In this document: positions 4,828 to 24,846 of the stretch, piece by piece
How positions within the stretch are numbered: the first letter of the stretch is position 1
Layout of the letters: the number at the start of each line of letters is the position of its first letter
Made by a program: the position numbers and the translations under genes
Notes under the pieces: generated by a model
What the model was told of the DNA's origin: nothing
Database searches by the model: none
What the model saw: the letters and a program-made list of their open reading frames with translations, nothing else
DNA from: an uncultured Verrucomicrobiota bacterium
GTDB lineage: Bacteria; Verrucomicrobiota; Kiritimatiellia; CAYTQP01; CAZOLK01
Reading direction: 5' to 3'
Assembly (NCBI GenBank): GCA_964580325.1
Contig: CAZOLK010000051.1
Span: forward strand, 1 to 28,682
Length of the DNA: 28,682 bases

Positions 4828-4880
4828 ACACGCCCTATCTCGCACATGAACACGCCCTATCTCGCACATGAACACGCCCT
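4828..4880. repeat. 22-bp tandem direct repeat (2.4 copies) in the divergent intergenic region; candidate enhancer/UAS
   Basis: The unit ACACGCCCTATCTCGCACATGA occupies 4828-4849 and is repeated exactly at 4850-4871, with a partial third copy at 4872-4880. It lies 40-100 bp upstream of the sigma54 promoter in minus-strand orientation. Confidence 0.8.
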
Positions 4881-5046
4881 TAGCCCGTTGTCATCGCATC
4901 ATGCCCAAAGCTGGTTACTTATTGACCAGGGTGGTTAGAAAAGTACCGGTCGGCATGCTTTTTGCCGGTTGGAAAATATACTTCTTTACGCTTTACATTT
5001 GTTTTTTGCACATTTTTGTGTTAATAAATATTTATGATAAATAAGT

Positions 5047-6660: not shown

Positions 6661-6665
6661 TTTAT

Positions 6666-7343
6666 ATGGATGTGCTGATTGTAGACGACGAGGCCGACTT
6701 CATCGATGTGTGCATACGCCTGCTCGCGCGTGAACCTTACCGTATCGAAGGTGCGCAATCAGGTGAACAGGCGCTGGCCAAGCTGGCAGACAAGACCTAT
6801 CATGTACTTGTCAGCGATATTCGTATGCCCAATATGGATGGCCTTGCACTCATGCAAAAGGTTCAGTGGCTCTACCCGGAAACAGCCATCGTTGCCATCA
6901 CGGCCCATGGCGATATCGACCTTGCTGTACAGTGCATGAAATACGGCGCGCTGGATTTTCTGCAAAAGCCTGTGGGCTCAGCTAAACTGCGCGAAACACT
7001 GGCATCCGCCATGCAATCCCGCCGCACTTCGGATATGCTTGCAGAAAACCGCGATAGCCTGGATCATCAGGTCTCTACCCGTGTCATGGAGGTGTTTATC
7101 GAGGATACGGCCCGTGTCCTGGACGAGATGGAAATCCATATCCAACGCCACGAATACGGCAACGTGCGCGAACTGGCCCATTATCTCAAGAGCAGTTGCT
7201 GTACGATTTACCGCATGGGCATGGACATGGTCGAACTCTGTGTGCAGCTCATGCACATGGATGAGTACGTCACAGAGCAGACCTGGCAACTCAAACGGTG
7301 TAACCTGCTAGACCTTTTTCAAGCTGTTCCACAAGGGAAATAG
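6666..7343 (+). CDS. Receiver domain fused to a C-terminal Hpt (histidine phosphotransfer) domain
   Basis: The N-terminus MDVLIVDDEADF...VLVSDIRMPNMDGLAL...AITAHGD is a canonical receiver. The C-terminal NVRELAHYLKSSCCTIYRMGMDMVELCVQLMHMDE resembles the Hpt HxxKG helix. The start codon sits 5 nt after the EBP stop. Confidence 0.75.
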   Translation: MDVLIVDDEADFIDVCIRLLAREPYRIEGAQSGEQALAKLADKTYHVLVSDIRMPNMDGLALMQKVQWLYPETAIVAITAHGDIDLAVQCMKYGALDFLQKPVGSAKLRETLASAMQSRRTSDMLAENRDSLDHQVSTRVMEVFIEDTARVLDEMEIHIQRHEYGNVRELAHYLKSSCCTIYRMGMDMVELCVQLMHMDEYVTEQTWQLKRCNLLDLFQAVPQGK

Positions 7344-7384
7344 CATGGATATGAAACGTTTATATATAGAAAGAGGAGGTTGAG

Positions 7385-8266
7385 ATGGAACCACACGCCT
7401 ATCTAAAATCAGGCACCAACGAGTTGAAGATCATGGAGTATTCGACCAGCGGCGTTCACTTTGGACTCAACATTCTGAAGACCAGCCGCGTGGTCAGCCT
7501 GCCGCCCAAGCTGCACCAGCCCGGCAATATGCACCCCGCGGTCATTGGCCTGATGAACGATCACGGGATCATCGTGCCCGTGATCGACCTGGCCCTGTTC
7601 TTGAAGTTGAAAGATAAACATCCGGACGAACACGAACTGCGCGGGCGCATCCTGATCACCGAGTTCTTCGGCCAGGTCAACGGCTTTCTGATCGATGCTG
7701 TGCACTATGTTCACACCATCATGTGGGAACGTGTATTCGACGCGGTCGAGATCATGGGCAACCTGGTGGGCAAATACGTGATTGGCATTGTGCGGCCCGA
7801 CGAAGAAAAAATGATCCTGCTGCTCGATTACGAAAAGATCATTCTCGATTTGAGCCCCGTCATCGAAGCCAATGAGCGGCAGAAAATGGACCATGAGATA
7901 CACGGCGAAAACCGCAAATTGCTGATTGCCGAGGATTCCACCGCAGTACGCGACATGTTGGCCGTGGAACTGAGCGATATGGGCTTTGAGGTGCTGATCG
8001 CCAAGGACGGTCGGGAAGCATGGCGCATCTATGAACAGAACCGCGATCTCGCCATGGTCGTTTCCGATGTGGAAATGCCCCAACTGGAAGGGTTGAGCCT
8101 GACCAAAATGATCAAGGACGACAATCCCCAGATGCCGGTCATTGTCTACTCGTCCATTGGCGACATTGGTATGAAAAAGCGGGCCGAAGACGTACAGGCC
8201 GATGCCCATGTCACCAAGCTGAATGTCAAAGAATTGATGGACGTAACGCGAGAACTGTTGTCATGA
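7385..8266 (+). CDS. cheV: CheV-like coupling protein (N-terminal CheW domain plus C-terminal receiver)
   Basis: The N-terminal part is a CheW-like fold, and the C-terminal KLLIAEDSTAVRDML...MVVSDVEMPQLEGLSL...VIVYSS is a receiver. The RBS GAGGAGG lies 6 nt upstream. A 4-nt ATGA overlap joins this gene to the next. Confidence 0.85.
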   Translation: MEPHAYLKSGTNELKIMEYSTSGVHFGLNILKTSRVVSLPPKLHQPGNMHPAVIGLMNDHGIIVPVIDLALFLKLKDKHPDEHELRGRILITEFFGQVNGFLIDAVHYVHTIMWERVFDAVEIMGNLVGKYVIGIVRPDEEKMILLLDYEKIILDLSPVIEANERQKMDHEIHGENRKLLIAEDSTAVRDMLAVELSDMGFEVLIAKDGREAWRIYEQNRDLAMVVSDVEMPQLEGLSLTKMIKDDNPQMPVIVYSSIGDIGMKKRAEDVQADAHVTKLNVKELMDVTRELLS

Positions 8267-9009
8267 GCAAAGCCGAACAACCAGCCCAGGACCCTTTTCT
8301 GACCTACCTGGTCCATGACCTGGAACCGGCCATGGCCTCGTTTCAAACCTTGCTCCGCTTGCTCAAGCAGAAACGCTACGCCCCAGACAACCCGATGCAC
8401 GGCAAGCTGGTGCATAGTTGCGACGCGGCCCTGCAATTCAGCCTGGGGCTGTTGCGCGACATGCTCGAATTCTCCAAGATGAAACGTATGGACTGGCCTG
8501 TACATCCCGCATCCTTTGCCTGGTCGGGCCTGTTCGACGAATGCCTGGCGCTCGCGTCAGTGCTCGCCGCGGACCGGGAGGTCGCCATCAACGGCCATAG
8601 CCTGGATACGGCGGATGAGTTCATGTCCGATGCCTGCATGATCAAACGCATTGTGGTCAACCTGCTGACCAATGCCATCAAAAACGTCGACCGCGGCGAC
8701 AAAGTGCAGTTGCGCTATACCAGAACCGACAAAGGCGCACTGATCCAAGTGGAGAACAAGGTGGACGGCATGGACGAGGCGTTTTGCAACAGAATTTTCG
8801 ATGAGCATGTGCAGTTGCCTGCGCACGATGGCAAGCGCGCTTATCGCGGCGTCGGCCTGGGCTTGAGCTATTGCCGCGCCGCCTGCGAAAGATTGCGCGG
8901 TAGCATTGCCGCCGAACTGCACGACCAGGGACGGCGCTTGCGTATGGTTCTCGAACTGACTCCATGGCCATCGCAAAGCAACGGTCCTGTGGATGGAGGC
9001 GAAGACTGA
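8263..9009 (+). CDS. Small cytoplasmic histidine kinase (HisKA plus HATPase_c only, no sensor domain)
   Basis: The H-box is LTYLVHDLEPAMASF, the N-box is VVNLLTNAIKN and the G-box is YRGVGLGLSYCRA. The 248-aa protein has no TM or sensor segment. Confidence 0.8.
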   Translation: MSKAEQPAQDPFLTYLVHDLEPAMASFQTLLRLLKQKRYAPDNPMHGKLVHSCDAALQFSLGLLRDMLEFSKMKRMDWPVHPASFAWSGLFDECLALASVLAADREVAINGHSLDTADEFMSDACMIKRIVVNLLTNAIKNVDRGDKVQLRYTRTDKGALIQVENKVDGMDEAFCNRIFDEHVQLPAHDGKRAYRGVGLGLSYCRAACERLRGSIAAELHDQGRRLRMVLELTPWPSQSNGPVDGGED

Positions 9010-9010
9010 A

Positions 9011-10183
9011 ATGCTGCACCAGATCAACATCCTGCATATCGAAGACAGCCCAATCGACAGCGCCTTGATCAAAGGTATGCTAGAATTGGACGAGCAGCAG
9101 CGTTTCACCTTGGAAAACGCCAAAAGCTTTGCCGAAGCTTGCCAGTTATTCATCCGAAACAAGTACTCGTTGATCCTGTGCGACTTGAACCTGCCCGACA
9201 TCATGGGCCGCGACACCGTGATCAACTTGCAGGAATTCGCAAAGTCAACGCCGATCATCATCCTGACCGCCAATGACGATGAGGCATTCAGTCGTGAAAT
9301 GGTGCAACTGGGTGTACAGGATTACCTGGTCAAAGGACATTTCAACTCTGATCTGCTCAAGCGCGTGATCTACTATGCCATCGAACGTTTCGAGGTGTTG
9401 AAAAAACTGGAACGCAAACAGGTCCAACTGGCCCATGCCGGGCGCCTGATCTCGCTGGGCGAAATGTCCGCTGGCCTGGCCCACGAATTAAACAATCCCC
9501 TGCAGATCATCCGCTCCGCCATCGATTTAATTGAAGTCACCTTTCGCGAACCCGACTGTGACGATGACGAGATCCAGTTGATGATCGATCGCATCAAAAA
9601 ACATGTCACACGGGCCAGCAATATCATCAACAACATGCGCATGTTTGTGCGCCAGGGCAACATTGGCGAAACCCATACGGTCAACCTGCGCGAAGCCATC
9701 CTGCAGGCCATGAACTTCATGCGTCAGCGTCTCTACCAGCATAATATCGATTATCGCGAGGAATTGGCGCCCAAACCCTGGCCGGTCAAAGCCCATACGC
9801 AACGCTTTGAACAGGTGGTGATCAACTTGGTCAGCAATGCTTTTCACGCCATCGAATCCAAGGTCTATCAACGTGGAGAACCGCGCCAACTGACCATTAC
9901 CCTGCAAAACATAAGGCAACTGCCCGCTTATATGACGCAGTCGGACAGCAAACAAGACGCGTGGGTGCTGATGGAAGTGAGCAATAACGGCAGCCCCATG
10001 AGCGAGGAGCAGCAAATGAACTGCTTCGAACCGTTTTACACGACCCGTACCGAAGGCATTGGCCTGGGCCTGTCCATCGCTTCCTCGCTGATCAGGGATT
10101 TCAACGGCATCATCGATGTCTGTGCGCGCGATGACCTCACCGTGTTTGGCGTAGCCCTGTCGGCCATAGGACAAACAGATTGA
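9011..10183 (+). CDS. Hybrid kinase with N-terminal receiver followed by HisKA and HATPase_c (REC-HK)
   Basis: The receiver reads INILHIEDSPID...LILCDLNLPDIMG...IIILTAND. The H-box is GEMSAGLAHELNNPL, and the ATPase motifs are LVSNAFHAIE and GIGLGLSIASSLI. The start was chosen at the Met directly after the upstream stop (TGAAATG), which has GGAGG about 12 nt upstream. The ORF-track start at 8993 is an alternative. Confidence 0.8.
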   Translation: MLHQINILHIEDSPIDSALIKGMLELDEQQRFTLENAKSFAEACQLFIRNKYSLILCDLNLPDIMGRDTVINLQEFAKSTPIIILTANDDEAFSREMVQLGVQDYLVKGHFNSDLLKRVIYYAIERFEVLKKLERKQVQLAHAGRLISLGEMSAGLAHELNNPLQIIRSAIDLIEVTFREPDCDDDEIQLMIDRIKKHVTRASNIINNMRMFVRQGNIGETHTVNLREAILQAMNFMRQRLYQHNIDYREELAPKPWPVKAHTQRFEQVVINLVSNAFHAIESKVYQRGEPRQLTITLQNIRQLPAYMTQSDSKQDAWVLMEVSNNGSPMSEEQQMNCFEPFYTTRTEGIGLGLSIASSLIRDFNGIIDVCARDDLTVFGVALSAIGQTD

Positions 10184-10228
10184 ATTCAGCCCAAAGGGGT
10201 ATCCACGTAACAAGGCGACCCGGATAGA

Positions 10229-10741
10229 TCAGAACAAACATTCATGATCTATGGCGACCACAACCCGGCGTCTGCGTTTGCCATAGGTGATGATCCCTTC
10301 CATGGGTTCGACGAAATCATCGATGCTCTTGATCCGACCGTCGAACACCGCGGTGTTGTTGAGCGTGTGCTTTAAACACGCGTTTTTCCAGCCACCAGTA
10401 AAGATGACCTGACGCAAATAGCGGAACTTGACCAGGATCGCACGCAACCGCTCCGACTGGGCATTGACGTTATCGCCGCTGAAACAGGGCACAAAATCGA
10501 CACGGTCGCTGAACTCCCGCAGAAAGTCCGGCAACTCGGTATCGTTCTGTTGCAAGCCAAGTATAATAACCGCCATCTCACGGAAGAGCTGACTCTTGAT
10601 TTTGCGCTTCAAGAGGGTAATATACCCCTTCGGATCCGTGATCACTTTACTGCACGCCAGCGCGAACTCATCGGGATGGACCACCACGTAGGCTGTGACA
10701 GGCCCCTCGTCCACACCTGATCTGGTCCGATCACTCATCAT
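10229..10741 (-). CDS. Hypothetical 170-aa protein translationally coupled to cheR; family not recognised
   Basis: The ORF is intact and overlaps the CheR stop by ATGA, so it belongs to the same operon. I recognise no motif; it does not match CheD, CheC or CheX signatures by eye. Confidence 0.5.
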   Translation of the reverse strand: MMSDRTRSGVDEGPVTAYVVVHPDEFALACSKVITDPKGYITLLKRKIKSQLFREMAVIILGLQQNDTELPDFLREFSDRVDFVPCFSGDNVNAQSERLRAILVKFRYLRQVIFTGGWKNACLKHTLNNTAVFDGRIKSIDDFVEPMEGIITYGKRRRRVVVAIDHECLF

Positions 10742-11589
10742 GCTTTCCGATAATAATACTTATGCTTTACGCGAAAATCAAGATCCGGGACATAGTTGGT
10801 GATCGGATAAGCCAGGCTGAGAAACAGGTAACCGCCCGGCGCCAGGCTCTCGTACAACGCACGGATGACCCGTTGCTGCGCATCCATGCTGAAATAGAAA
10901 AGCACATTCTTACAGAAGACAAAGTCAAAATTGCGCATGGCGCGCAAACTGGCAAAATCGGTCAGGTTCAAACAAGAGAACTGGACCATCTGCTTGACGA
11001 TCGGTTTGACCGCATAACCTTTGACGCCGTAATCGCAATACCGGTAGCTGAACGATTCGGGCAGCGTGCGCTCCAGCTCGCGGCTGTACACGCCTTGCCG
11101 GGCGATCTCCAGGTAATGGCGCGAGATGTCCGTGGCCGCAATCATGTAGCGCCACGTCTCGTTCCGCCCTGCGTCAAGCATCAGCATGGCCAGCGAATAG
11201 GGCTCTTCGCCCGTGGAACAGCCGGCGGACCAGGCCTTCAGCAACTGGCTGCCACGAACACGCTTGGTCTGCTTGACTTCAGGCAGACACTCCTCGACAA
11301 ACACTTCCAGTTGACGCTGATCCCGAAAAAAAAAGGTTTCGTTGACGATCAGCAACTCCAGGAAATACTGGAACTCACCCTCGAGTCGCTGGTCCGCGGC
11401 CAGCAATTGATAGTATTCGTCAAAGGTCAGATCAAGTGCGCTCATGCGCTTTTGCAGACTGCTGGACAGGCCATATTGTTGCTTGGCCGCCATCTCGATG
11501 CCGGTGCGCATCTGTACCAGGGCGCCGACGGTTTCGATATCTTCAGCAACAGGTTTACGATAAGGCATAATATATTCCTTTGGAAACAA
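10738..11589 (-). CDS. cheR: CheR-type chemoreceptor glutamate methyltransferase
   Basis: The motifs ETFFFRDQ, the SAM-binding WSAGCSTGEEPYSLAM and DFVFCKNVLFYF are CheR hallmarks. Confidence 0.9.
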   Translation of the reverse strand: MFPKEYIMPYRKPVAEDIETVGALVQMRTGIEMAAKQQYGLSSSLQKRMSALDLTFDEYYQLLAADQRLEGEFQYFLELLIVNETFFFRDQRQLEVFVEECLPEVKQTKRVRGSQLLKAWSAGCSTGEEPYSLAMLMLDAGRNETWRYMIAATDISRHYLEIARQGVYSRELERTLPESFSYRYCDYGVKGYAVKPIVKQMVQFSCLNLTDFASLRAMRNFDFVFCKNVLFYFSMDAQQRVIRALYESLAPGGYLFLSLAYPITNYVPDLDFRVKHKYYYRKA

Positions 11590-11618
11590 TTCACTATACG
11601 TCTATTTGATATAATTGC

Positions 11619-11821: not shown

Positions 11822-11852
11822 GTGAACGATTACGGGCGACAATTACGGCCAA
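11822..11852. repeat. 31-bp element, left copy of an inverted repeat pair (partner at 21731-21761)
   Basis: GTGAACGATTACGGGCGACAATTACGGCCAA is the reverse complement of 21731-21761 with one mismatch. It contains an internal direct repeat CCGTAAT(T/C)GT x2. Confidence 0.85.
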
Positions 11853-13348: not shown

Positions 13349-14641
13349 CTAGCGTAATTCATCGCGCACGAACTGGTAGAGCGCTTCCTGGCCAAAGTTG
13401 CCGGACTTGAGGACCAGCAGCAGGTTTTCACGGTCCGTGGGGAAGCAATAGGGAACGCCCGGCGCCAAGGGCAGGCCCACTTCAACGGCGCGGATGTCCA
13501 GCTTGCGGCAGACCGCACCCGAGGTTTCACCGCCGGCCACAATCAGCCGCCCGACCGCGCCGCGCTCCACCAGAGTTCCGGCTATGCCGGCCAGCGTATC
13601 GGCAATGCGCTCGCCGGTCCGGACACTGTTCAAACCCTGATCCGCGCCCATTTGCTGTATGCGCTCGATGCCGGCCCGGTCCATGGACGGGGCCTGGACC
13701 AGCGCACCGCCAGCCTGGTTCAACGCCGCTTCTGCCAGGTCCAGAACGTTGGCTGGATCATAGGTTCCTTGCACAATGGCCGGGATATCCAGGGTTAACT
13801 TTTTAAAGTCATGGGCTTCGGCATGTTGGGTCTGGCGCGCCGAGGTGGGTGACTGGCTGCCGGAAACGACCAACGTGGCGCGCGGCATAGCTTGCAGGCG
13901 CTTGCTGAAATCGAGCGGCTTGGTCTGGCACCCGTGGGCCGCGGGCAATGCTGCGGTGATGCCCGAGCCGCCGCTGATCAGGGGCCAGCCCCTGACCGCC
14001 ATAGCAATCCGGTCCAGGTCGTCCTGACAGACCGCGTCGGTCACCAGCCAGACCGCGCCTGCATCGACCAATTGCTCCAGTTTCTGGCCCAGGTCCGGCC
14101 CGCGCACCGTTTCCAGCGGAACCAGCTCTACCTTGCGGTCGGTCTGATATTGCAGCCAGCGCACCAGGTTGGCGTCGGTCATGGGGTTGAGCGGATGGTT
14201 GCGCAGAGCGGATTCGGACAGCAGTTTCCGGCCGACAAATAAATGGCCCTGGTACACCGTGCGTCCATTGACCACCAGGGCCGGGCAGACGATCGAAGCC
14301 CTGGCCAGCGGCAGTGCGCCCAGCGCCGCGTCAAGGGTCGGCCCGATATTGCCTTCGCGTGTGGAATCGAATGTCGAGCAGTACTTGATCTGGATTTGTC
14401 CCACGCCCAGGTCGCGCAGCAAACTAACGGCGCGCGATGTAGCCGCGGCAGCCAGCTCGGGCGCAACCGAGCGGTTCTGAGTTCCGATGACCACGGCCTG
14501 AAACGCGTCCAGCGCAACCGGCGGATGGGCCAGGTCATTTTCGTTCATGATCAACAGCGTGCGTGCACCTCGCTCGGTCAGCATGCCGGCCGCATCCGTG
14601 GCGCCTGTATTGTCGTCGGCGATAATGCCCCATTTCAGCAT
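13349..14641 (-). CDS. Four-carbon acid sugar kinase family protein (DUF1537; OtnK/YgbK-like 3-oxo-tetronate kinase family)
   Basis: The N-terminus GIIADDNTGATD and the C-terminal nucleotide-binding region VAGGETSGAV match the DUF1537 kinase family. Confidence 0.75.
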   Translation of the reverse strand: MLKWGIIADDNTGATDAAGMLTERGARTLLIMNENDLAHPPVALDAFQAVVIGTQNRSVAPELAAAATSRAVSLLRDLGVGQIQIKYCSTFDSTREGNIGPTLDAALGALPLARASIVCPALVVNGRTVYQGHLFVGRKLLSESALRNHPLNPMTDANLVRWLQYQTDRKVELVPLETVRGPDLGQKLEQLVDAGAVWLVTDAVCQDDLDRIAMAVRGWPLISGGSGITAALPAAHGCQTKPLDFSKRLQAMPRATLVVSGSQSPTSARQTQHAEAHDFKKLTLDIPAIVQGTYDPANVLDLAEAALNQAGGALVQAPSMDRAGIERIQQMGADQGLNSVRTGERIADTLAGIAGTLVERGAVGRLIVAGGETSGAVCRKLDIRAVEVGLPLAPGVPYCFPTDRENLLLVLKSGNFGQEALYQFVRDELR

Positions 14642-14656
14642 GGACTTGTCCTCACC

Positions 14657-15292
14657 TTACATTTGACGGTTGAGCAATTCGTTGACTTGCGCTTCGTTCA
14701 GCGCTTCACCGCCCTGGCGCACCCAGAGCCACTGGCGGCAGTTTTCCTCCAGCTCCTCCAGAATGCCCAGCGCCTTGCGCCCGGTCGGCCCCATAACCAG
14801 TACGCCATGGTTGCGCAACAACAGGGCACGGTGCTGTTGGACGCCTTGGGCAATAACCTGAGCCAGTTCCGCACTGCCTGGCGGGTGATAGGCCAGCACA
14901 GGGACGTGTCCGGCACGCATGACGAACTGCGGCGTGACCGACGGCAGCCGGTCGCCGACAGCCAGAAAAGTCGATGCGGCTATGGCGTGGCTCGGATGCG
15001 CATGCACCACACAGCGTACATCCGGACGCTGACGCAGAATCGCCAGGTGCCCGCCCTTCTCCTTGCTGGGACGCCGGTCATTGAGCGCGCAGCCATCGAG
15101 CGTCAACAGGGACAGGTTATCTATACGGATATCGGCCATACCCACGCCGGTCGGCGTAACCGCGCAGCGCCCGTCTTCGCCCGGCAGGCGGATGCTGGCG
15201 TTGCCGCTGGTCGACGTGCCCAGCCCACTGCGCGCCAGCGCGTGGCAGACATCCACCAACTCGCGCAAGGCTTGTTCGTCGCCCGTGTTCAT
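14657..15292 (-). CDS. Class II aldolase/adducin-family protein (OtnC/FucA-like)
   Basis: The motifs GNASIR, PSKEKGGH and VVHAHPSHA are typical of class II aldolases. The start was taken at MNTGDEQ, which overlaps the upstream stop by ATGA. The longer ORF-track N-terminus is unlikely. Confidence 0.7.
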   Translation of the reverse strand: MNTGDEQALRELVDVCHALARSGLGTSTSGNASIRLPGEDGRCAVTPTGVGMADIRIDNLSLLTLDGCALNDRRPSKEKGGHLAILRQRPDVRCVVHAHPSHAIAASTFLAVGDRLPSVTPQFVMRAGHVPVLAYHPPGSAELAQVIAQGVQQHRALLLRNHGVLVMGPTGRKALGILEELEENCRQWLWVRQGGEALNEAQVNELLNRQM

Positions 15293-15978
15293 TCCGTATC
15301 CCTGAAAGACGCGGCCCGCAGCTCGCGCAAAGTCGCGGCCAGGCGCTGCATGGCCGGTTGCGGACTGGAATAGATCGGGACCGCCCGAGTATCCTCGGGC
15401 AATTGTTCGACGATCCGCGCCATGGAAGCCTGAGCCAGGCATACGGCATCCACATCGCGCATCAGGTTTTCCAGCGCAGCCTTGACCAATCGGTCGTGGG
15501 CAGCCATGTCACCGGTGAACAGGGCGTCGTACGCACCTTCAACCAGGCACTCGACCACGACGGTATCGCGCCCTTCTTCGTCGGCCAGGTCACGGGTCAA
15601 CGCAACACTGGGCCGCAACGTAGCCGGATTGGTGGCGATCAAGCCGTTGCGCGCATGCTGTTGCACAGCGCTGCGCAGCATGGGATCGTCGATGCAGAGC
15701 ACCGGGATCGACGTCATCTGCCGCGCCAGCGGGGCGCATGGCGAAAGCGACGAGCAGGTGAGTTGAACCACACCGGCGCCGGCATCGGCCGCGGCCGTGA
15801 TGTGGTCGCACACCCGCCGGGTAATGGCCGGAGTCAAGCCGCCGGCCGCGAGCAGGCGCTGGATCAGGCTGTCGTCAGCCACATGGAACAGCTTGACGTC
15901 CGGAATGGTTTCGCACGCCAACTGATCGAACGCGTCACAGACCTTCCAGAGCGAATGCAACAGGCAAACCTTGATCAT
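15289..15978 (-). CDS. Asp/Glu/hydantoin racemase-family protein
   Basis: The fold-level resemblance is to the Asp/Glu racemase / arylmalonate decarboxylase superfamily (MIKVCLLHS..., paired Cys-containing segments). The start was taken at the Met that overlaps the upstream stop by ATGA. Confidence 0.5.
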   Translation of the reverse strand: MIKVCLLHSLWKVCDAFDQLACETIPDVKLFHVADDSLIQRLLAAGGLTPAITRRVCDHITAAADAGAGVVQLTCSSLSPCAPLARQMTSIPVLCIDDPMLRSAVQQHARNGLIATNPATLRPSVALTRDLADEEGRDTVVVECLVEGAYDALFTGDMAAHDRLVKAALENLMRDVDAVCLAQASMARIVEQLPEDTRAVPIYSSPQPAMQRLAATLRELRAASFRDTE

Positions 15979-16616
15979 GAAGCGTCTCCCCCGGGCTCCT
16001 GCTTGGGCAGCATGATTTCGATAAAGCCTTCGGTCTGGTCCAGGGTGAAGGGCATGAGCTGGGTGCGGAACGGTACATAGCCGTAGCAATCGCCGCTCTT
16101 GCGAATCTGAGCAGCTTCATAGGCAGTGTTGACGCGACGCTTGTACTCGTCCTTGACATCCTCGAACACAGCAGTCAGGCCGTTGCCAATGTAGTTGTCG
16201 GCTGTTTTGGCGTGGAGGTCGTAAGCGGTGCGGGTCAGCGCGCCTACGGTCTGGGCATAGAGCCAGTAGCGCAAGGTCTCCTGCCATGCTCCGCGCTGTA
16301 CCATGACCCAGGGCGTGACCTGGATCAGCATGGTGACGGCATAGTTCAACTCGCCAGTCCAGGCGCCGATTTGATCGTAGCCGAGGGCCTTATCCAGGAT
16401 GACCCGGGCCAGGGCCTGGGCCGCGTTGGTCGGCTCGCTAGTATCGCCGCCGTCCATGGCCGCGATGGTGTCGGCGACCTCCATAAAGGCCTTGCGGTAA
16501 TGGGTCGATATTTCAGCGGTCGCATTTTCAGCGATCAGCGCATCCGCGATTTCATTGGCCAATGCTTTCACTTTTTCATCAATATCCGGCCTGTTGTCGT
16601 GTGGTATATAGGGCAT
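15975..16616 (-). CDS. Hypothetical 213-aa protein, family not recognised, translationally coupled to the racemase-family gene
   Basis: The ORF is intact with RBS AAGGA and overlaps the downstream gene by ATGA. It has no signal peptide and no motif I can assign. Confidence 0.5.
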   Translation of the reverse strand: MPYIPHDNRPDIDEKVKALANEIADALIAENATAEISTHYRKAFMEVADTIAAMDGGDTSEPTNAAQALARVILDKALGYDQIGAWTGELNYAVTMLIQVTPWVMVQRGAWQETLRYWLYAQTVGALTRTAYDLHAKTADNYIGNGLTAVFEDVKDEYKRRVNTAYEAAQIRKSGDCYGYVPFRTQLMPFTLDQTEGFIEIMLPKQEPGGDAS

Positions 16617-16642: not shown

Positions 16643-19316
16643 TTATTCTACTTTTTTACTATTCACGCGCTCCAGATCCTCTACGGCCAGGCCGCAGAGC
16701 AACGGCTCGCCTGCATGCGGAACCAACTCCACGCGCACGCCCTGGTTGTCGCGGGTGCGAACCACGACATGCTCCATGACCGCATTGCGCTCACCGTAGC
16801 GCTCGGCCAGGTCCAGATCCTTCATCACGAGCCGGCCATTGATCTGGATATCGAACACGCGCCGGCCTTCGGGATCGGCGCCAGTCTGCTCGTTAGGATC
16901 GCGGCGGCAGGCGCGCGGAAACGGTTCGGTCAGACACAAGGAAACCCGATACAGGCTGTCCGGCAGGTCGATCCGGTAGTGGCGCAAGCCGACCAGGAAG
17001 GTCTGAAAAACGGGCAACAGCTCAGTGCGGCGGATATTATGGCGCACGCCTTCGCGGATCCCGTGCCAGGCAGCCATGCTTTTCCAGACACGGTAAAAGC
17101 GTCCCTCCAGGTGGCCATAGGCGCCAGCAGCGTATGGGCGGTCCGGTGCCCATATATCGCCGGTGAGCGGGTCGTGGAAAAAGGTGCGCGACTGGCCCAG
17201 GTTGATGCACAGCTTGCGGGGCCGCTCGATCACGTTCAGTTCAAGATGATCCGGCAAGGCCTCGCACGCCGGGTCACGGCTCAACGCAAGCAGGCTGTTG
17301 CGGCCGGCGGTCAGCGGTACGTTCCAGACCGCGCACTTGTTCTCGATCCGGCGAACGCCCAGCGACTTGCCGTTATGGATCAATTCGACCTGTACGCAAT
17401 TACTGTAGACCTGGATCGGTTCCCCGGACGCCTCAGGATCGAGCCGCAAACGCTGGGGCCAATCGTGTTCGGCAATGTGGACCATGGGTTCCGGGTTCCA
17501 GTGCGCCTTGTAGAGGTAGAAGGTATCCTTGCGCCGCCGGTCGCCGGTCAACAAACCCTTGTTGTTGATGTGCTTCATGCTGTCGCCAATGGAATTGCGC
17601 TGGAAATCGACCAGAGTCCAAATAAACATGCCGGCGATCCAGGGCCGGGTTTCGACAGCGGCCAGGTAGGCCTTGTGAAAGCGGTCGGCATGCTCGGGGG
17701 TCATGTCGTATAGGGTCGGTTCGTGGGTATGAACGCGCGTATCCGTACCAGCGCCAAACTCAGCGATCAGGTAGGGCCGGCGCGGAGCGTACGTACGTGT
17801 CTGGGCCAGAATTTCCGGCAGACGCTCGATGGACCCGTGGTACCAGCCGAAATAAAGGTTCCAGCCGTTGAAATCGTTGATTTCCGTCAACCCGGCCTCG
17901 GCGTTCCATTGCGGATTGGGATCGGTATGGAAATCGTTGGCGGTCAGCCGATACGGGTCCAGTTCCTTGATCAGCGTCTCCATGCCGGCCATCAACTCGC
18001 GCACTTCGTGAAAATGGCGCTGGAGCCGGCCCGGGTGCTGGGGTTTGGGCCAGAACCAATCGGCGTCGCCCAACGGTTCGCAGGCGTAACCCCACATAAT
18101 CACCGCGGGGTGGTTGTAGAGCTGGAGCACCATCTCGCGCAACGTCTGATGGTATCGGTCGCGAAACTCGGGCGCCATGGAGACACGGTCCATAATCACG
18201 GATTTGACCCAGCACATCACACCGAGGCGATCACAGGAATCGTAGATTTCGCCGGCCAGCGGGTAATGGCCGCGCATGGCATTGGCGCCCAGCGCTTTGA
18301 TTTCACATACATCGTTGTGCAGCACCTCATAGGGCACGGCATAACCCAGGCCAGCGTAATCCTGATGCCGACCGATGCCGCGTAGGAAACAGCGCTCGCC
18401 ATTGAGGAAAAAGCCCTGTTCCACATCGACGCTGAACGCACGAAACCCGAGCGGAGTGGACAGTTCATCCAGCACATCGCCTGTTTCGCTGTCCAGGATG
18501 CGATGCAGCACGCAATAGACATAGGGATGATCGGGCGACCAGGGGTGAGGGTCGGGCACGGAGTCGGATACGGCGCAGGTCAGGATTTGGGCGCCGGCTT
18601 CGAGGACCAGGGTTTGCTGCAGAGCCGTCACGCTTTTGCCCTCTGCGTCGCACACTTCGCTCCGCACGACCAGGGTGCGATCAACCGCGCTTTCATTGAC
18701 CAGCCGGGCGCGTACGCGCACCGGTGCATGACCAGGCGCAAAGTCGGGCGTATCGACCAGCACGCCGCACGATCCGCAATGCATCATATCAAAATGAACC
18801 AAGCCGGTACGCACCAGGTGGACATAGCGGTACAGGCCGCCGAAATGGCCCAGGTCGCCGCCCAGCGGGGCCACCTCTTCGTTGTGTGCATTGCTCAAAC
18901 GCACGTTGAGCAGGTTGGCGTCGCCGACATGGGCCAGGTGGGTGATATCGACGCAGAACCCGGTGAAACCACCGTAATGGCGACCGGCCTCGCCGCGGTT
19001 GAGATAAACCACGGCATCCTGGTTGGCGCCGTCAAAATAGAGGTAAAGTTTGCCTTCCAGGTCCTCGGGTTGCAGGTGCAGTTCCTTTTCGTACCAAGCT
19101 TCACCACGGTAATACGCGAGCCTGGACCCGCCACCATAGCCGGCAAAAGCGCCACATGCGTCATCGCCGGATGGTGGTGCATCGCGCTCATCGGCGATCA
19201 GGTCGCGGGCGTTCCAGGTATGCGGCAGATTGACGATCTCCCAGGCAGGCGGATCGCGATCCGCTTTGGCAAAACGCCAGCCGCTGTTCAAGGTCTGCTT
19301 ACTTCTCACATTCGGC
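16643..19316 (-). CDS. Glycoside hydrolase family 2 protein (beta-galactosidase/beta-glucuronidase-like), cytoplasmic, with an extra C-terminal domain
   Basis: The GH2 N-terminal sugar-binding region reads LNSGWRFAKAD...WEIVNLPHTWNARDL. The central TIM-barrel region contains NAMRGHYP and MWGYACEP. The start was taken at MPNVRSK, which has GAGGAG 8 nt upstream; the 53-codon N-terminal extension in the ORF track is unlikely. Confidence 0.8.
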
Positions 19317-19919
19317 ATCGATAACTCCTCAAGCTGGTTACAACCTAATAGCCCACAGAAAAATATCATGCCATTTTGAGGGCCAACTATCCCATCCAGC
19401 GGCGTTGCAAAAACTCGAAATATTCCAATATTCCTGCGTTTTTGCGCCTTGTTGGACTGGGCAACTTGACTCCACAAAATTCATCTTATTTTCCCGTAAA
19501 CCATAAAGTCACCATCATGCGTCAACAATTCACAAACTTCTACCGCGATTCTGCAGTTTTTTGCGCAGAATACGCAAATTCTTAAATTGCGGATTTTATC
19601 TTGCCACCCGCGACTTGACATACGGCTGATGCCTATTGCACTTCTACCAGCTTCGATGCGCAGGGACGCCTGCTGCTTTCGCTTGAGGTGGACGGCGCTT
19701 TCCAACTCTGCCGCATGGACCACCGCAACGGTAACGACCTGGTTGGCGTAAACCTGGAAAACGAGACCCATGTTTTATTCAGCCCGCCGGAAGCTTCTCA
19801 CACGATGGACAACTGGTGCTGTTCACTTCGGATTGCGAAGGATCGCCGAGTCCGTTTTTGGTGGAGCTTTAGGGGAACCCCACTTGTTATCGGCCAGGGC
19901 ACTGATATTTTTCATTGCC

Positions 19920-20040
19920 TGTGACAACGAAACTGCCGTGGAGATGTCGGATTACGTTCGTAGTCCAGGCTTTAGCCTGCTGAATGCTTCGTGCCTGCAA
20001 ACAACAGAAAATCCACGGCAGTTTCGTTGTCATAGCATCT
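19920..20040. repeat. Perfect 21-bp inverted repeat (arms 19920-19940 and 20020-20040) around a 79-bp spacer, in a low-GC non-coding stretch
   Basis: TGACAACGAAACTGCCGTGGA and its exact reverse complement TCCACGGCAGTTTCGTTGTCA. The spacer contains the small hairpin CCAGGCTTTAGCCTG. Confidence 0.85.
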
Positions 20041-20267
20041 TGCCCCTGAACTTCCGGAAGCAAAGGCCTGCTAGAAGATATTTTGCGAATTTTTCGGGGA
20101 ATTTGTCGCCGACAAGCAGCGTCAAAAAGAGTGGCATTTTTCCCCTTTTGGCAAATCACAAGGACTGCCGACTGTACGCTGCTTCCCTTGGGGCCTTAGG
20201 CAATTCAACATACCTTCGCCTTGTATTGTCCAACTCCCAATTCGCAACTCCTTCCTTCCCCAATCGG

Positions 20268-21056
20268 CTAAACTTCAAGCACGCAGATGGCCTTGGCATG
20301 ACGGATGTGCAGAGCCATGCTTTCGCTGATGAAGAATTCGAATTCCGTGGCTGATGGGCCGATATAGCCGATGCTCATGTCCTGACCGACCACAATCATG
20401 ACATAGGGTTTGCCGGTGGCGACCAACACGCCGCCTTTTTCCAGGTAAGGAGCCTTGACAATGCCGTCGGTCACCATGGTTTTCAGGTGTTCCAACTCGC
20501 TGGGGCCATTGCTGTACAGGCGATAGAGCTTGTTGTACAGGTTTGGCGCCAGGGCCAGGGCGAACGGGCCGAAAACGCCGGTTTCATCCATGGCGGTCAG
20601 GGCCTTGATCACGTCTTCGGACGCCATGCCAACGCTTTTCCAGTCCTGGCACTTGATCTTTTGCACGCCCTTGACTTTGAGCAGGCCCGGCGCATTGTCC
20701 GTACCTTTGAAAATCAGCATTTCTTCCCTGGTCGCAGCCTCACGGGTGGCTTTGGCCACGGCAGAGGCCGGGAAATTGAGGCCATCGTGCTCAAAAGCAG
20801 CGATATCGCGTTGATTCAGGCTGAAATTGACCCGAAATTCGATCAAGGGCAGAAAGCCGGGTACGCTGAGGCCGTCTTCGCCGATTTTGTCGGCCAAAGG
20901 TACACCTTTGACGCCCACACCGAGCGGTCCTTGCAGATGCAACAGCTTGCGACCGGTCAGAAGGGCGTTGGCGTTTTGGATCATGATCTTATCCATACGC
21001 TCCCAGATGGCAGAATCAAAGGGCGCGTCGTCGCGAAACAGATATTTATTCGACAT
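20268..21056 (-). CDS. Family 1 encapsulin shell protein (linocin M18-like, HK97 fold)
   Basis: The 262-aa protein resembles the T. maritima encapsulin along its length, including the conserved GQDMSIGY segment (GQDLSIGY in T. maritima). Confidence 0.8.
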   Translation of the reverse strand: MSNKYLFRDDAPFDSAIWERMDKIMIQNANALLTGRKLLHLQGPLGVGVKGVPLADKIGEDGLSVPGFLPLIEFRVNFSLNQRDIAAFEHDGLNFPASAVAKATREAATREEMLIFKGTDNAPGLLKVKGVQKIKCQDWKSVGMASEDVIKALTAMDETGVFGPFALALAPNLYNKLYRLYSNGPSELEHLKTMVTDGIVKAPYLEKGGVLVATGKPYVMIVVGQDMSIGYIGPSATEFEFFISESMALHIRHAKAICVLEV

Positions 21057-21082
21057 GTAAATTCTCCGGAATAGGTTGTGAT

Positions 21083-21475
21083 TTATTTAAGGGAACCGAT
21101 GGTGGGCGAAGTGCCGCCATCGTCGTCGATTTCTTGGCCCGCTTCGGCTTCCACGCTTTCCGCAGCGGCGGCACCTGTGAGTTTAGCGATCTCTTCCTCG
21201 ACTTCCGCGGCGCCTTCTTTCAGGTATTGCTCCTCGTCGCCGGTCAAATATTGCAGCAGCCGCATGAATTCACCAGCATGCACGCGCTCTTCGTTGGCCA
21301 CGTCGCGCAGAACCTCTTTGGCCACCGGATCGTCCGTGGCGTCGGCCTGGGCAGTGTACAAGTGAACAGCCTCGTGCTCCGCGGCAAGGGATATGCGAAC
21401 CGCACGGATCAACTCTTCCTTCGTCATTTTCCTTTCCGGAACCATACCGGAAAAAGGGTTTGAAAACTCAGCCAT
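21083..21475 (-). CDS. Encapsulated ferritin-like cargo protein (EncFtn) with C-terminal encapsulin targeting peptide
   Basis: The EncFtn-like di-iron motifs are AAEHEAVHLY and ERVHAGEF. The C-terminus GGTSPTIGSLK matches the encapsulin cargo-loading peptide consensus. The start was taken at MAEFSNPF, which has GAGGAG upstream. The gene lies immediately upstream of the shell gene. Confidence 0.75.
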   Translation of the reverse strand: MAEFSNPFSGMVPERKMTKEELIRAVRISLAAEHEAVHLYTAQADATDDPVAKEVLRDVANEERVHAGEFMRLLQYLTGDEEQYLKEGAAEVEEEIAKLTGAAAAESVEAEAGQEIDDDGGTSPTIGSLK

Positions 21476-21730
21476 GTTATCGCTCCTCATGTTAGCAGGT
21501 CCATTGAAGCAATGTAAAACAACACAGCCTTGCCCCACAATAAAAAAAGCAGTTTTCCTTGAATCGGGCGTAACAGGAGGGAGCAGAAGGGAGGGTGCAG
21601 GGTGAAACGTGACCATCGAGGCGGTCGCGCACGGCACGCTACGCTACGTCAGAACTCGGACATCATCATGGTCTGTGAAATCCGCAATTGCAGAGCGCGA
21701 ATTGCGCGACATGGCCATAGCCAAGGGCAG

Positions 21731-21761
21731 TTGGCCGTAATCGTCGCCCGTAATCGTTCAC
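21731..21761. repeat. 31-bp element, right copy of the inverted repeat pair (partner at 11822-11852)
   Basis: TTGGCCGTAATCGTCGCCCGTAATCGTTCAC matches the reverse complement of 11822-11852 at 30 of 31 positions. Confidence 0.85.
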
Positions 21762-21992
21762 CGGGTGTTCTTGGTTAGAAGCCGTCGCCCCCTCCCTCCC
21801 CCTCCCGTGAACGGTTACGAATGCCTTTATATTCATGCGCGTCCATTTGCGTTCATTCGCGTTTCCCCTCAAGTATGGCCCTGGTTTGTTGGCCCACTTT
21901 TTTATGTTGTGCGTACACTTGGGGATGACAATCTATAGTCATTCGTCCTGACGGATGCTGGCCCGGCATGACGCACAAGACGTTTTATCCTA

Positions 21993-23894
21993 TCAAGACG
22001 ACGGCGCCAGGGTATACGCACCCGGCGCCAACACGCCGTCCTCGCCTTGCCAGTTCCGCTCGCCGAAATTGACGGTCACGTGCGCGCCAGAAGCATACGT
22101 GCTGCGCTCCACGGTGCGGTCGTCGTCCAAAAACGCATGATCGACCATGGCCTCGCCGCCGATGCGCTGCATCCAGGCGTCGAACTCTGAGCAGGCCCCC
22201 ACCATAGGACGGATTCGCGACCAGTTGACGGCAGTGACACGAATATGGGTCAGGTGCAGGCCATTGACCAGCAATGCCAGCATGCCTCGTTGAAAACGGG
22301 ACATGTCATCCGGCTGGGGCGGCCGTGCATCGTGCGGGTCCAGCCCGAGCGCCGCGCTGAAACCGAGATGCGCATCGTGGAAGACAAGCGCCCACAACGG
22401 CACGCTGACACCCGTGGTATGACGGCTGGGATTTGGCGCCCAGTCGACCACGGGCACGCCGAAATCGCAACCCACTTCGCTGCCCGTGATCAACCCCTGG
22501 TGCGCGAGATAACCGAGCATCGCGGTCCTGTGGGCCTCGTCCTCGGCGCGGGTCATGCGGTGATCCGGGTCATGGTTCTCGTAGAGCTGAACCGCGTTGT
22601 TGGTATCGAGATAAACCGCGCGCACGCCATGGGCCAAGTAGTGGGCCACGTTCTGCTTCATCTTGTTCATGACCTGACCGTAATCCAGCAACTGGCACTG
22701 GCCGCCGGACCAGATACCGCCGCGCAACCGCGTGCCGTCAGCGCGCAGCAGGATGCCGTGCGGGTAACTGGGCGACTGACGGTAAATATCGGCGTAGTTA
22801 TCGAGTAAACCGGGTACGACCGGATCAGGCATGCGCACGAGCGCCTCGAAATCGGCAACGCTGCCCAGGGCCGGTTCCGGCGGCCAGGCGTCGGGAAACT
22901 GGTCGTCCCAACCGCCATGCGACCAGCCGGGCAACTGGGCCAGCCCCCTATACCAGCCGGCCTTGTGCGCATCTTCCAGAATCTCGCGCGCCTGGTTGAA
23001 CGTGGTCGCAACATACGGGCCATCCGGCTCACTCGCCGCCCAATCCGGCACGGGCTGCCACTGGTTCTCATAAGTGGCGCGATAGTGCGGTTTGGACAGC
23101 AGAATCGATATTTTGCGGCCGCCGATCAGGTTAGCCAAATGCGGACGGGTTTCGGTCTTGTCGGCCAGCGATACGAACAGACCGTTATCCATGGCCCATT
23201 GACGAAAAGCGGCGGCCATGCCCACATAACCGTCGCGGGTGAAAACATAGCGCACGATACGTTGTCCGCGCCATTGGCCCAACGACTTCAACCAGACTGG
23301 CGCGGTCGCGCAGCCGGCATGCATGACGCCAGCATCGGCATGGCCGCGATGCATGATCGCGACCCAACCGCGACCAGTCGCCTCGTCCACGATCCCGCCA
23401 AACCAACGCATGCGCAGGTCATGCCCGTAAAAACGGTGGATACGGCGGCAGAAGTTGGGCAAAGGCTCGCGCAGCCACTCACCCGTACCGCACGGCAGCA
23501 CCAGGCTGGCGGATGCCACGGGCGTCGGAAAACAGAGCGAAGGCAGGCTTTCGTCCACCTCGTCCAGGATCACGTCTAGGCCTTCGGGATTTAAGGCATA
23601 ATGCGCCGAAAACGCACCACGTGCGACGCCGTCTTCGTCGAGTACCTGCCAGCGCACACGATCCGGACCAACGGCCTGACCATGGAAACGGCAAGCGTAC
23701 TGCTCGCCGATCAGCCGGTCGATACGATGCCAGCACAGCCCGTTCTCGATGGGTCCGTCCTCCTGCAGCCCCACACGACCAAACGCGAAACGTGTCCCAT
23801 CCTCGCGGGCAACCCAGACCGCCGAGCCATCCTCGCGCACCATCAACGCGCCCGCGCCGTTCTCCATAGATACTATTTGTCCTGCTTCCTTCAT
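21993..23894 (-). CDS. Putative glycoside hydrolase-like protein (633 aa, family uncertain)
   Basis: The ORF is a long cytoplasmic protein with a good RBS (AAGGAG). Its aromatic-rich segments (PGWSHGGWDDQFPDAWPP, YLDTNNA) suggest a carbohydrate-active TIM-barrel enzyme. The family assignment is not secure without a search. Confidence 0.4.
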   Translation of the reverse strand: MKEAGQIVSMENGAGALMVREDGSAVWVAREDGTRFAFGRVGLQEDGPIENGLCWHRIDRLIGEQYACRFHGQAVGPDRVRWQVLDEDGVARGAFSAHYALNPEGLDVILDEVDESLPSLCFPTPVASASLVLPCGTGEWLREPLPNFCRRIHRFYGHDLRMRWFGGIVDEATGRGWVAIMHRGHADAGVMHAGCATAPVWLKSLGQWRGQRIVRYVFTRDGYVGMAAAFRQWAMDNGLFVSLADKTETRPHLANLIGGRKISILLSKPHYRATYENQWQPVPDWAASEPDGPYVATTFNQAREILEDAHKAGWYRGLAQLPGWSHGGWDDQFPDAWPPEPALGSVADFEALVRMPDPVVPGLLDNYADIYRQSPSYPHGILLRADGTRLRGGIWSGGQCQLLDYGQVMNKMKQNVAHYLAHGVRAVYLDTNNAVQLYENHDPDHRMTRAEDEAHRTAMLGYLAHQGLITGSEVGCDFGVPVVDWAPNPSRHTTGVSVPLWALVFHDAHLGFSAALGLDPHDARPPQPDDMSRFQRGMLALLVNGLHLTHIRVTAVNWSRIRPMVGACSEFDAWMQRIGGEAMVDHAFLDDDRTVERSTYASGAHVTVNFGERNWQGEDGVLAPGAYTLAPSS

Positions 23895-23910: not shown

Positions 23911-24846
23911 TTACCTGTTCTCGATTAACATCATACAGCAGCAGAACCAGTCCATGAAAAAGTCGTCCATGGCAAGGTGGGAAGGCTTAAGGACCGCGCC
24001 CATGAAAAAATTATCGTTGAACCGCGCACCTACACCCTCCAGATCGAGCATGAACTGGATCATCTTTTTGCTAAAACTCATGTTCACATCCCAGATCAAC
24101 CCTGTTTTTCCACCCTTTTTTATGAGCGCCTCCACCTTATCGAGAAAACGTTTTTTGAAATGCTCGTAGGATTCGTCCTTCAATGGAAGCTGGCAATCGT
24201 ACACGATACCGTGCCATTCGGCGATGGCGACCGGACCGTACTGGTAGTTGTTCTGGTATATAGGCCGCGGATCTATGCGAATGTAATGGAAGCTGAGCAA
24301 ACGATCCGCGCCGCGTGCGATCAGGTGTTCGGCCATGGACTGGTAACAGCCGAACAGGTTATAGGCGATCATATCGCACGGCAGATTGACCTGGCCCACG
24401 GAAATGAGCACGAACGGTTTGCCGCGGGCCAGCAGCAAGGCTGCATCAGCCTGGGGCATGGCAGCGGCGGCATAGACGACAAGGCCATCATACGCCCGGG
24501 GCGCGGGCTGGTCAAAGTAGGCGGGAAAAGCCTTGTGCCAATCATCACCCAAGTGATCCATAAAACAAGTGGCACCCAAAAGATCCAGCACTTCGCGGAT
24601 CCCATCCCGGATGCCGCCGGCCAGCGGGTCAGCACGAGTATCCGCTTGCCGGCCAGGAAAGGCCCGTCCTGTGCAGCGCGTAGACGAGGGCCGACCGCAA
24701 ATACGCCCCAGTCGATTTTTTTCCAACACGCCCAAGGTGGTCAAACGGGCCAACAGGCGGCTCAACGCGGCGTGCGGCAGGTCGAGCACTTCACCGAATT
24801 TGGCTGATTTCACCGACCCAGCACTCTTGAGCGCCTTTTCAATCAT
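23911..24846 (-). CDS. Transcriptional regulator with N-terminal winged-HTH and C-terminal periplasmic-binding-protein-like (LacI-core-like) sugar-binding domain
   Basis: The N-terminus FGEVLDLPHAALSRLLARLTTLGVLEKNRLGR resembles a wHTH. The C-terminus PFVLISVGQVNLPCDMIAYNLFGCYQSMAEHLIARGADRLLSFHY resembles the LacI/GalR ligand-binding core. The stop lies 17 nt upstream of the GH-like gene. Confidence 0.5.
   Translation of the reverse strand: MIEKALKSAGSVKSAKFGEVLDLPHAALSRLLARLTTLGVLEKNRLGRICGRPSSTRCTGRAFPGRQADTRADPLAGGIRDGIREVLDLLGATCFMDHLGDDWHKAFPAYFDQPAPRAYDGLVVYAAAAMPQADAALLLARGKPFVLISVGQVNLPCDMIAYNLFGCYQSMAEHLIARGADRLLSFHYIRIDPRPIYQNNYQYGPVAIAEWHGIVYDCQLPLKDESYEHFKKRFLDKVEALIKKGGKTGLIWDVNMSFSKKMIQFMLDLEGVGARFNDNFFMGAVLKPSHLAMDDFFMDWFCCCMMLIENR

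Follow-up and report, generated by a model that had tools for sequence, protein, structure and literature searches.

Encapsulated ferritin-like systems and the Kiritimatiellia locus

Iron mineralisation is the function of the EncA/EncB/EncC encapsulin system of Myxococcus xanthus (Protein Data Bank (PDB) entries 4pt2, 7s20, 7s21 and 7s8t), in which EncA, a shell protein of 287 amino acids (aa), forms T=3 (and T=1) shells and the two-helix, ferritin-like cargo proteins carry a C-terminal targeting peptide. The species has several cargos, whose genes lie at scattered loci. In the Thermotoga maritima encapsulin (maritimacin; 3dkt and 7kq5) a gene for a ferritin-like protein (Flp) stands 5' of the gene for a family-1, T=1 shell of about 264 aa, and in Pyrococcus furiosus (2e0z and 5n5e) shell and ferritin domain make up a single fusion protein. 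The encapsulated ferritins (EncFtn) of Rhodospirillum rubrum and Haliangium ochraceum assemble as D5 decamers and need the shell for holding mineral, and family-1 operons as a rule place a single primary cargo gene directly 5' of the shell gene (PMC8346489). The subject here is a cargo-shell gene pair at positions 20268-21475, minus strand, of contig CAZOLK010000051.1, which derives from an uncultured member of the Kiritimatiellia (Verrucomicrobiota); "the window" refers throughout to the whole stretch analysed, 28,682 nucleotides (nt) in length.

By every feature that can be read from its sequence, this pair is a family-1, Flp-type encapsulin system, and the EncFtn-type cargo and family-1 shell proposed in a preliminary description of the DNA are confirmed by scores above cut-off for NF058679, NF041155 and PF04454. 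It is very probable that the two genes form a self-contained operon of the Flp/EncFtn class, which came to its present place through shuffling of gene order or an old transfer rather than through a functional link to its neighbors or a recent insertion. The system is divergent and of an already known type, the closest homologue of its shell being 53% identical. The addition is thus of a divergent Flp-type encapsulin from a barely sampled lineage; what is known of encapsulin mechanism is left unchanged by it.

The cargo protein

The cargo gene (21083..21475, minus strand) encodes a 130-aa, EncB/EncC-like encapsulated ferritin-like protein. A Shine-Dalgarno sequence, AGGAG, can be read at 21483..21487 on the same strand, 7 nt 5' of the ATG at 21475, and the exact 130-aa product is on record in the database, as is the exact product of the shell gene, both from an NCBI contig of 28682 bp, which makes the window a complete contig. 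The protein scores 115.5 bits with the NCBIfam model NF058679 (EncB_fam; cut-off 90) and 31.3 bits with the Pfam family Rubrerythrin (PF02915; cut-off 22.8). Among solved structures it is closest to M. xanthus EncC (7s8t, 66.8 bits) and to the homologous P. furiosus EncFtn domain (5n5e, 54 bits), which is fused to its shell, whereas the window cargo has a gene of its own and a targeting peptide as its functional link to the shell; matches to other solved encapsulated ferritin-like proteins (6suw and 33bf) are weak, at 20-21 bits.

Identity to the cargo genes that stand beside related shells is 59-68%, and an alignment of the window cargo with three of these (four sequences in all) locates the conserved residues. 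The motifs AAEHEAxHLY and NEERxHAGEF are kept in all four proteins, with E33, Y40, E63 and H66. The ferroxidase ligands, E33 in helix 1 (AAEHEA) and E63 and H66 in the Glu-x-x-His of helix 2 (NEERVHAGEF), are invariant in 4/4 cargos and align with the corresponding motifs of EncC and P. furiosus EncFtn, so that the ferritin-like Glu/His motifs noted at the outset have held up. Presumably the three residues equate to the iron ligands Glu32, Glu62 and His65 of the R. rubrum protein.

An acidic linker precedes the C-terminal targeting peptide. The cargo ends in ...DDDGGTSPTIGSLK, with the tail ...GGTSPTIGSLK; the peptide itself, SPTIGSLK, is encoded at 21086..21109 (minus strand), and its T(I/V)GSL(K/R) pattern recurs in 4/4 of the aligned cargos, as expected from the TIGSLK loading peptide of the preliminary description. 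The tail also fits the core of the published family-1 consensus, SDGSLGIGSLKRS (PMC8346489). A check for further cargo with the same tag, suggested earlier, was made within the window only, where no other real open reading frame (ORF) has a tail resembling the targeting peptide.

The shell protein

The shell gene (20268..21056, minus strand; 262 aa) follows the cargo gene on the same strand, with 26 nt between the cargo stop codon (21083-21085) and the shell ATG at 21056, and has its own Shine-Dalgarno sequence, GGAG, at 21064-21067, 7 nt 5' of that ATG. The layout agrees with the cargo-then-shell rule of family 1 and, with one cargo gene directly 5' of the shell, differs from the scattered cargo genes of M. 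xanthus. The protein scores 214 bits with Pfam Linocin_M18 (PF04454; cut-off 24.3) and likewise 214 bits with the NCBIfam equivalog NF041155 (encap_f1, "family 1 encapsulin shell"; cut-off 100). Its only Pfam domain occupies residues 4-248 of 262, and its fold is of the HK97 type.

Alignment to solved encapsulins extends over the full length of the protein. In a phmmer search of the PDB the highest scores are with the Dendrosporobacter quercicolus encapsulin (133 bits), M. xanthus EncA (125 bits, 32% identity) and the T. maritima shell (67 bits, 24% identity); the H. ochraceum shell (7odw) is 26% identical. The alignment with T. maritima encapsulin in the preliminary description is therefore real, but M. 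xanthus EncA lies nearer, and the T. maritima protein belongs to a more distant branch than was implied. An AlphaFold2 (AF2) model of the shell built from 35 homologues has a mean confidence (pLDDT) of 92.8, and when compared with known structures by Foldseek its top PDB matches are encapsulin shells without exception: EncA with a template-modelling (TM) score of 0.86-0.88 at 32% identity and T. maritima with 0.85 at 24%. The model has the N-helix, E-loop, P-domain and A-domain only. A fusion domain is absent, as are the family-2 features, namely a cyclic-nucleotide (cNMP)-binding insertion and a long N-terminal extension.

Compared with EncA the window shell is shorter by about 15 residues at the E-loop region. 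Root-mean-square deviations (rmsd) of the model are 2.8-3.8 Å from T=1 conformers (7s21 2.8, 7kq5 3.0) and 4.4-5.7 Å from the chains of T=3/T=4 shells. Together with the length of 262 aa, these values hint at T=1 assembly.

Proposed function

By homology with the M. xanthus EncA/B/C, T. maritima, R. rubrum and H. ochraceum systems (PMC8346489), the cargo would be expected to assemble as decamers with di-iron ferroxidase centres at the dimer interfaces. By the same analogy, the targeting peptide would dock in the N-helix/P-domain pocket on the inner surface of the shell; Fe2+ would enter through the shell pores and be oxidized by the cargo, and the resulting ferric mineral would be retained within the shell. 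The expected outcome is storage of iron and protection from Fenton chemistry and oxidants.

Relatives of the operon and their neighborhoods

The relatives available for comparison are the six shell homologues whose contigs were read, with 48-52% identity to the window shell. In 6/6 of them a gene for a cargo of about 120 aa lies directly 5' of the shell gene, and in five of the six, redox or oxidative-stress genes adjoin the pair. Genes for Fur, rubredoxin, rubredoxin reductase, rubrerythrin and a flavodiiron protein surround one pair (P0011); desulfoferrodoxin, rubrerythrin, AhpC and Fpg are encoded beside two others (P0007 and P0010); and two more, on contigs of archaeal appearance (P0004 and P0009), have flavin reductases as neighbors. 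Unrelated genes flank the sixth (P0018). Neighbors such as Fur, rubredoxin, rubrerythrin, desulfoferrodoxin and AhpC point to oxidative-stress defence in anaerobes, and by analogy with these relatives the module probably serves the same defence in the Kiritimatiellia bacterium.

The surroundings of the window operon are atypical by comparison, as it sits among glycoside hydrolase (GH) genes. The earlier remark that it splits a GH locus, an unusual placement, is a fair one. Its relatives are found mostly among redox genes, and the locus shows that the two-gene module can occur outside the oxidative-stress surroundings typical of most of them. Each of the six window proteins that were looked up is a singleton at 90% identity, and no close relative of the host was found in the collections, where relatives of the DUF5696 protein encoded next to the operon reach 68% identity at most. 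The best named matches of the window galK product (53-55% identity) are a mixture of Aminicenantes, Acidobacteriota, Verrucomicrobiota, Kiritimatiellae and Lentisphaerae.

Gene order and the flanking gaps

The operon is part of a long co-directional array on the minus strand. In the direction of transcription the order is a LacI-like gene, a DUF5696/GH129-like glycoside hydrolase gene (21993..23894), a gap of 517 base pairs (bp), cargo, shell, a gap of 949 bp, a GH2 glycosidase gene with a malectin domain (16643..19318; 891 aa, with the start at 19318 taken from the gene call on record), and genes for a DUF6899 protein, a racemase, a class II aldolase and a four-carbon acid sugar kinase.

The 517-bp gap 5' of the operon (21476..21992; 53% GC) is non-coding, and no promoter or regulator site was identified in it. 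No Fur, PerR or sigma-54 sites were found 5' of the cargo gene, and the sole sigma-70-like match there would put the start of transcription inside the ribosome-binding site; such matches occur at the chance rate, and sigma-70-like and terminator-like matches taken together are at or below it. There was no Rfam match in the window or in the gaps. When ten ORFs of the gaps were compared with Pfam (E <=1), a sub-threshold T2SSE match was the only result.

That match belongs to what may be the relic of a gene for a GspE/PilB-type secretion ATPase, at 21626..21733 on the plus strand, for which the evidence is weak. In blastn against 0.9 Mb of loci from the Planctomycetes-Verrucomicrobia-Chlamydiae (PVC) group, 35/42 nt are identical to a gspE-like gene of Kiritimatiellae (E 1.7e-5); in tblastn 17/37 residues are identical, and the Pfam T2SSE score of 13.7 bits is below cut-off. 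The translation (..ATLRQNSDIIMVCEIRN..) resembles a conserved motif of GspE/PilB ATPases. A Walker-A-like piece, weaker and non-significant, may lie at 21483-21566 (plus strand), at about the right distance from the relic. If the relic is real, a decayed gene of opposite orientation is present and the locus has been rearranged.

Two of the three G-quadruplex-type motifs in the window also fall in the 517-bp gap, on opposite strands. The G-tract GGGAGGGGGAGGGAGGGGG (21788..21806) is on the operon sense strand (minus), and the second motif (21579..21602, plus strand) is C-rich on that strand. The two tracts pair in a single-sequence fold with a z of only -2.3. They bracket a copy of a 31-nt repeat (see below) and the possible gspE relic.

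The gap of 949 bp that separates the shell stop from the GH2 start (19319..20267) is apparently non-coding as well. It includes a long hairpin (19919-19942 / 20012-20035), which lies 233 nt 3' of the shell stop and whose 24-nt arms, 96% complementary, are separated by a spacer of 69 nt. Folding of the RNA of the 391 nt around it (19880-20270, minus strand) gave z = -3.9, and the hairpin may serve as a transcript terminator or stabiliser. An annotated ORF of 194 aa (19770-20354, plus strand) runs antisense to the 3' end of the shell gene. Its GC content is flat over the three codon positions (0.51/0.48/0.52), it has no Pfam match and no homologue among 1.84 billion representatives, and it is probably a false gene call.

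Was the operon inserted recently?

The preliminary description proposed that the operon arrived horizontally. In its strongest form this account has the two-gene module inserted, fairly recently, into an existing GH operon, with the flanking DNA, the repeat and the hairpin as traces of the event. It is a possible account and an unlikely one. In its favor, the context of the operon departs from the oxidative-stress surroundings of its relatives, the non-coding gaps of 517 and 949 bp on either side are unusually long, and the operon is missing at the DUF5696 relatives, in one of which (locus L004) a LacI-like gene and the DUF5696 gene precede further glycan genes, with a GH2 gene coming after these. 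The possible gspE-type relic just 5' suggests rearrangement. Identity to the nearest shell relatives is about 50%, and the only taxa named among these are Chloroflexota (Anaerolineae and Dehalococcoidia), with some contigs, which carry Sec61-beta, looking archaeal. Movement of family-1 operons between phyla is also known (PMC8346489).

Measurement of the operon and its flanks gave a different picture. The shell gene has a GC content of 55.3% and third-codon-position GC (GC3) of 70%, and the cargo gene 57.3% and 63%; both fall inside the ranges of the window genes (52-64% GC and 61-76% GC3), and the codon-usage distance of both is typical of short genes. The low-GC flank that had been described did not bear examination: at 49.7% (19478-20267) and 53% (upstream gap), the flanks have ordinary intergenic GC for the window (43.9-55.8%). 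No tRNA gene was found in the window, the ORFs that were scanned contain neither an integrase nor a transposase domain, and the operon is not bracketed by direct repeats. A tblastn search of the gaps, with every ORF of seven related loci as query, found no debris of glycan pseudogenes. The long inverted repeat is real, as are the G-rich tracts and the 31-nt repeat, and none of them is an insertion scar. The hairpin is without a second copy in the window or in the 0.9 Mb of PVC loci, and the repeat, one arm of an interspersed palindrome found throughout the lineage, is an intergenic element of a generic kind, which at least 118 stretches of other genomes carry; the arm in the upstream gap suggests that this gap is resident DNA. 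What seemed to be scars at this locus (long non-coding flanks, a short shared repeat, a hairpin and G-tracts) thus vanish as such once composition and repeat distribution are measured.

Gene order offers no further resolution. The orders around the DUF5696 relatives (68-52% identity) differ throughout, which leaves an empty site undefinable, and at 68% identity or less these relatives are in any case too distant to define one. A recent insertion is not supported: composition, gaps, repeat and mobility genes give no signal of one. Old horizontal transfer or local rearrangement is plausible. For the position between two GH genes, the most likely origin is a shuffling of gene order or an old transfer of the two-gene module.

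Several points weigh against the reading of a self-contained operon that owes its place to shuffling or old transfer. For the cargo, the Pfam family EncFtn-like (PF22277) gives 25 bits, just short of its cut-off of 27, and TIGR04535 gives 86 bits with a cut-off of 125, so that family membership rests on NF058679 and the solved relatives; of the two Pfam profiles proposed earlier as a check, Linocin_M18 passes and EncFtn-like narrowly does not. No promoter, terminator or regulator site can be assigned to the operon, whose transcriptional autonomy is read solely from the flanking gaps of 517 and 949 bp. The unusual surroundings are compatible with an insertion, and an encapsulin gene adjoins DUF5696 in 0/3 of the closest DUF5696 relatives (68-52% identity). 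The possible gspE relic is the best remaining hint of an insertion, and a weak one. Finally, the two solo repeat arms, one 5' of galK and one 5' of the cargo gene, agree in orientation and have identical boundaries.

The 31-nt repeat and its palindrome family

Two copies of the 31-nt repeat are present in the window, one at 21731..21761 (minus strand), 256 nt 5' of the cargo ATG, and one at 11822..11852 (plus strand), about 194 nt 5' of the start of galK (12046, for the 390-aa gene call). They are identical at 30/31 positions and have sharp boundaries, and the chance expectation for such a pair is zero. The flanking 31-bp repeat of the preliminary description is in this sense well founded. When its core, GATKACGGGCGACRATTACGG, was used as a query, matches were found in one metagenome contig and, among species-representative genomes, in 118 stretches at least. 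The labels of the matching metagenome-assembled genomes (MAGs) are almost all Kiritimatiellia/-ae, Victivallales, Lentisphaerales, "PVC group", Verrucomicrobia or Roseibacillus, and there are often many copies per genome. None was found in the loci of the shell relatives, of each of which 22 kb or less was sampled. The occurrence of the repeat in the window argues for membership of the contig in this PVC lineage, the host being a glycan degrader, probably of the PVC group (Kiritimatiellia/Lentisphaeria-like).

The repeat is one arm of an imperfect palindrome of about 95 nt, comprised of 13-nt units, CGGnnnACGATTA, that occur three times and then three times inverted. The consensus of the 5' half is CGG-TTGAC-GATTA CGG-GCGAC-GATTA CGG-nnnAC-GA, the centre is a variable 13-17 nt, and the 3' half reads TCGT-nnn-CCG TAATC-GTCGC-CCG TAATC-GTCAA-CCG. 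Full copies are found, for example, at L118:1127-1221, L078:1426-1520 and L008:2753-2910. The spacer between the 21-mers has a mode of 29 nt, seen in 27/56 non-redundant pairs, and in an alignment of the 27 elements with this spacer the stem hardly varies, each of its positions showing a single type of base pair. At the three "nnn" positions of the inner unit, pairing is seen in no more than 4-11% of copies, and this gives the element a conserved internal loop (3x3) and a definite polarity.

In the sampled loci 118/146 arms are intergenic by crude ORF calling. Among 144 arms in other genomes, 102 are paired and 42 solo; both copies in the window are solo. No RAYT (REP-associated tyrosine transposase) or other transposase gene was found beside the sampled copies (8 kb or less around each, with no whole genome covered), and no target-site duplication is evident. 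The family corresponds to no Rfam family, full elements having given spurious miRNA-hairpin hits only, and no match was found in the literature searched. It behaves as an element like the repetitive extragenic palindromic (REP) sequences or miniature inverted-repeat transposable elements (MITEs), not as an operator or an insertion scar.

With REP/REPIN sequences, which are mobilised by RAYT, and with MITEs such as the Neisseria Correia element, the palindrome shares its small size, palindromic form, intergenic position, presence in multiple copies per genome and occurrence as inverted doublets and solo arms, as well as the lack of a preference of gene or orientation and an imperfect hairpin with conserved mismatches. 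REP sequences are usually species-specific; the palindrome arm, by contrast, is kept almost base for base over 21-31 nt across MAGs of Kiritimatiellia, Lentisphaeria and Verrucomicrobiota. This PVC-wide palindrome is the more unusual by-product of the analysis, and may be of use as a lineage marker for binning.

In one Kiritimatiellia MAG, two full palindromes enclose a gene with the motif NIAEGHGR (L118:1240-2019, minus strand), by reading a four-helix-bundle protein of the type encoded in 23S rRNA intervening sequences (IVS). Palindromes and gene together separate two duplicated, sialidase-looking genes, an arrangement not generalised to other loci. That the repeat forms the ends of a cassette for the four-helix-bundle gene was considered and rejected, as the gene was found in only two loci and adjoins the repeat only in L118.

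A regulatory role for the two arms can be framed in two ways, each with little chance of being correct. The first, which is improbable, is that a protein present throughout the lineage (REP/RAYT-like, or a DNA- or RNA-binding regulator) binds this undescribed palindrome family, and that the solo arms act on galK and the encapsulin operon. If this were so, a regulator working through solo arms would tie iron sequestration to glycan catabolism. The second, slightly more doubtful still, is that the encapsulin operon and galK (galactoside use) have the 31-nt motif in common as an operator or enhancer, through which both answer to one regulator. The near-identical copies with their identical boundaries are what such a site would show, as is their position 5' of the next gene in the same orientation, at 256 nt (cargo) and about 194 nt (galK), and the two ACGATTACGG-type boxes 13 nt apart resemble a protein-binding array. 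A gene-specific operator should show a bias in placement, however, and none is seen. The 144 arms of other genomes face gene starts and gene ends about equally (92 vs 98), and the element also lies between convergent genes; no neighbor family recurs (the largest cluster has 4/190 neighbors), and the solo arms are likewise without bias. The sugar-regulon operator is rejected on this basis.

Least probable of all, to the point of being negligible, is that the shell gene is a degraded HK97 major capsid gene of a prophage: the HK97 fold is common to encapsulins and phage capsids, which are often mistaken for one another (PMC8346489), but this shell reaches 214 bits with an encapsulin-specific equivalog, has only encapsulins as its top structural matches and follows directly on a cargo gene with a targeting peptide, and the window contains no gene for a terminase, a portal, a protease or any other phage protein.

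Other features of the window

The gene directly 5' of DUF5696 (23911-24846, minus strand) encodes a regulator-like protein with a very weak match to MalI/LacI-type sugar-binding proteins (16.5 bits) and none to Pfam; on inspection by eye the N-terminal part looks like a winged helix rather than a LacI-type helix-turn-helix. Its position is like that of the periplasmic-binding-type (LacI-like) gene of locus L004.

Beyond the GH2 gene, a cluster at 13349-16616 (minus strand) encodes a four-carbon acid sugar kinase (SBD_N/NBD_C), a class II aldolase, an Asp/Glu-racemase-like protein and a DUF6899 protein. It resembles the catabolic clusters for acid sugars of the threonate/erythronate type, and adjoins galK and the GH2 gene.

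A cluster of chemotaxis and two-component genes spans 1-11600. It includes a gene (694-2670, minus strand) for a 658-aa protein with four consecutive CheW-like domains (Pfam CheW), an unusual architecture for a scaffold. In the divergent intergenic region between the genes for a methyl-accepting chemotaxis protein (MCP) and a sigma-54 activator, a 22-nt unit (AACACGCCCTATCTCGCACATG) is exactly duplicated in tandem (4827-4870, plus strand), and this duplication could be a regulatory site.

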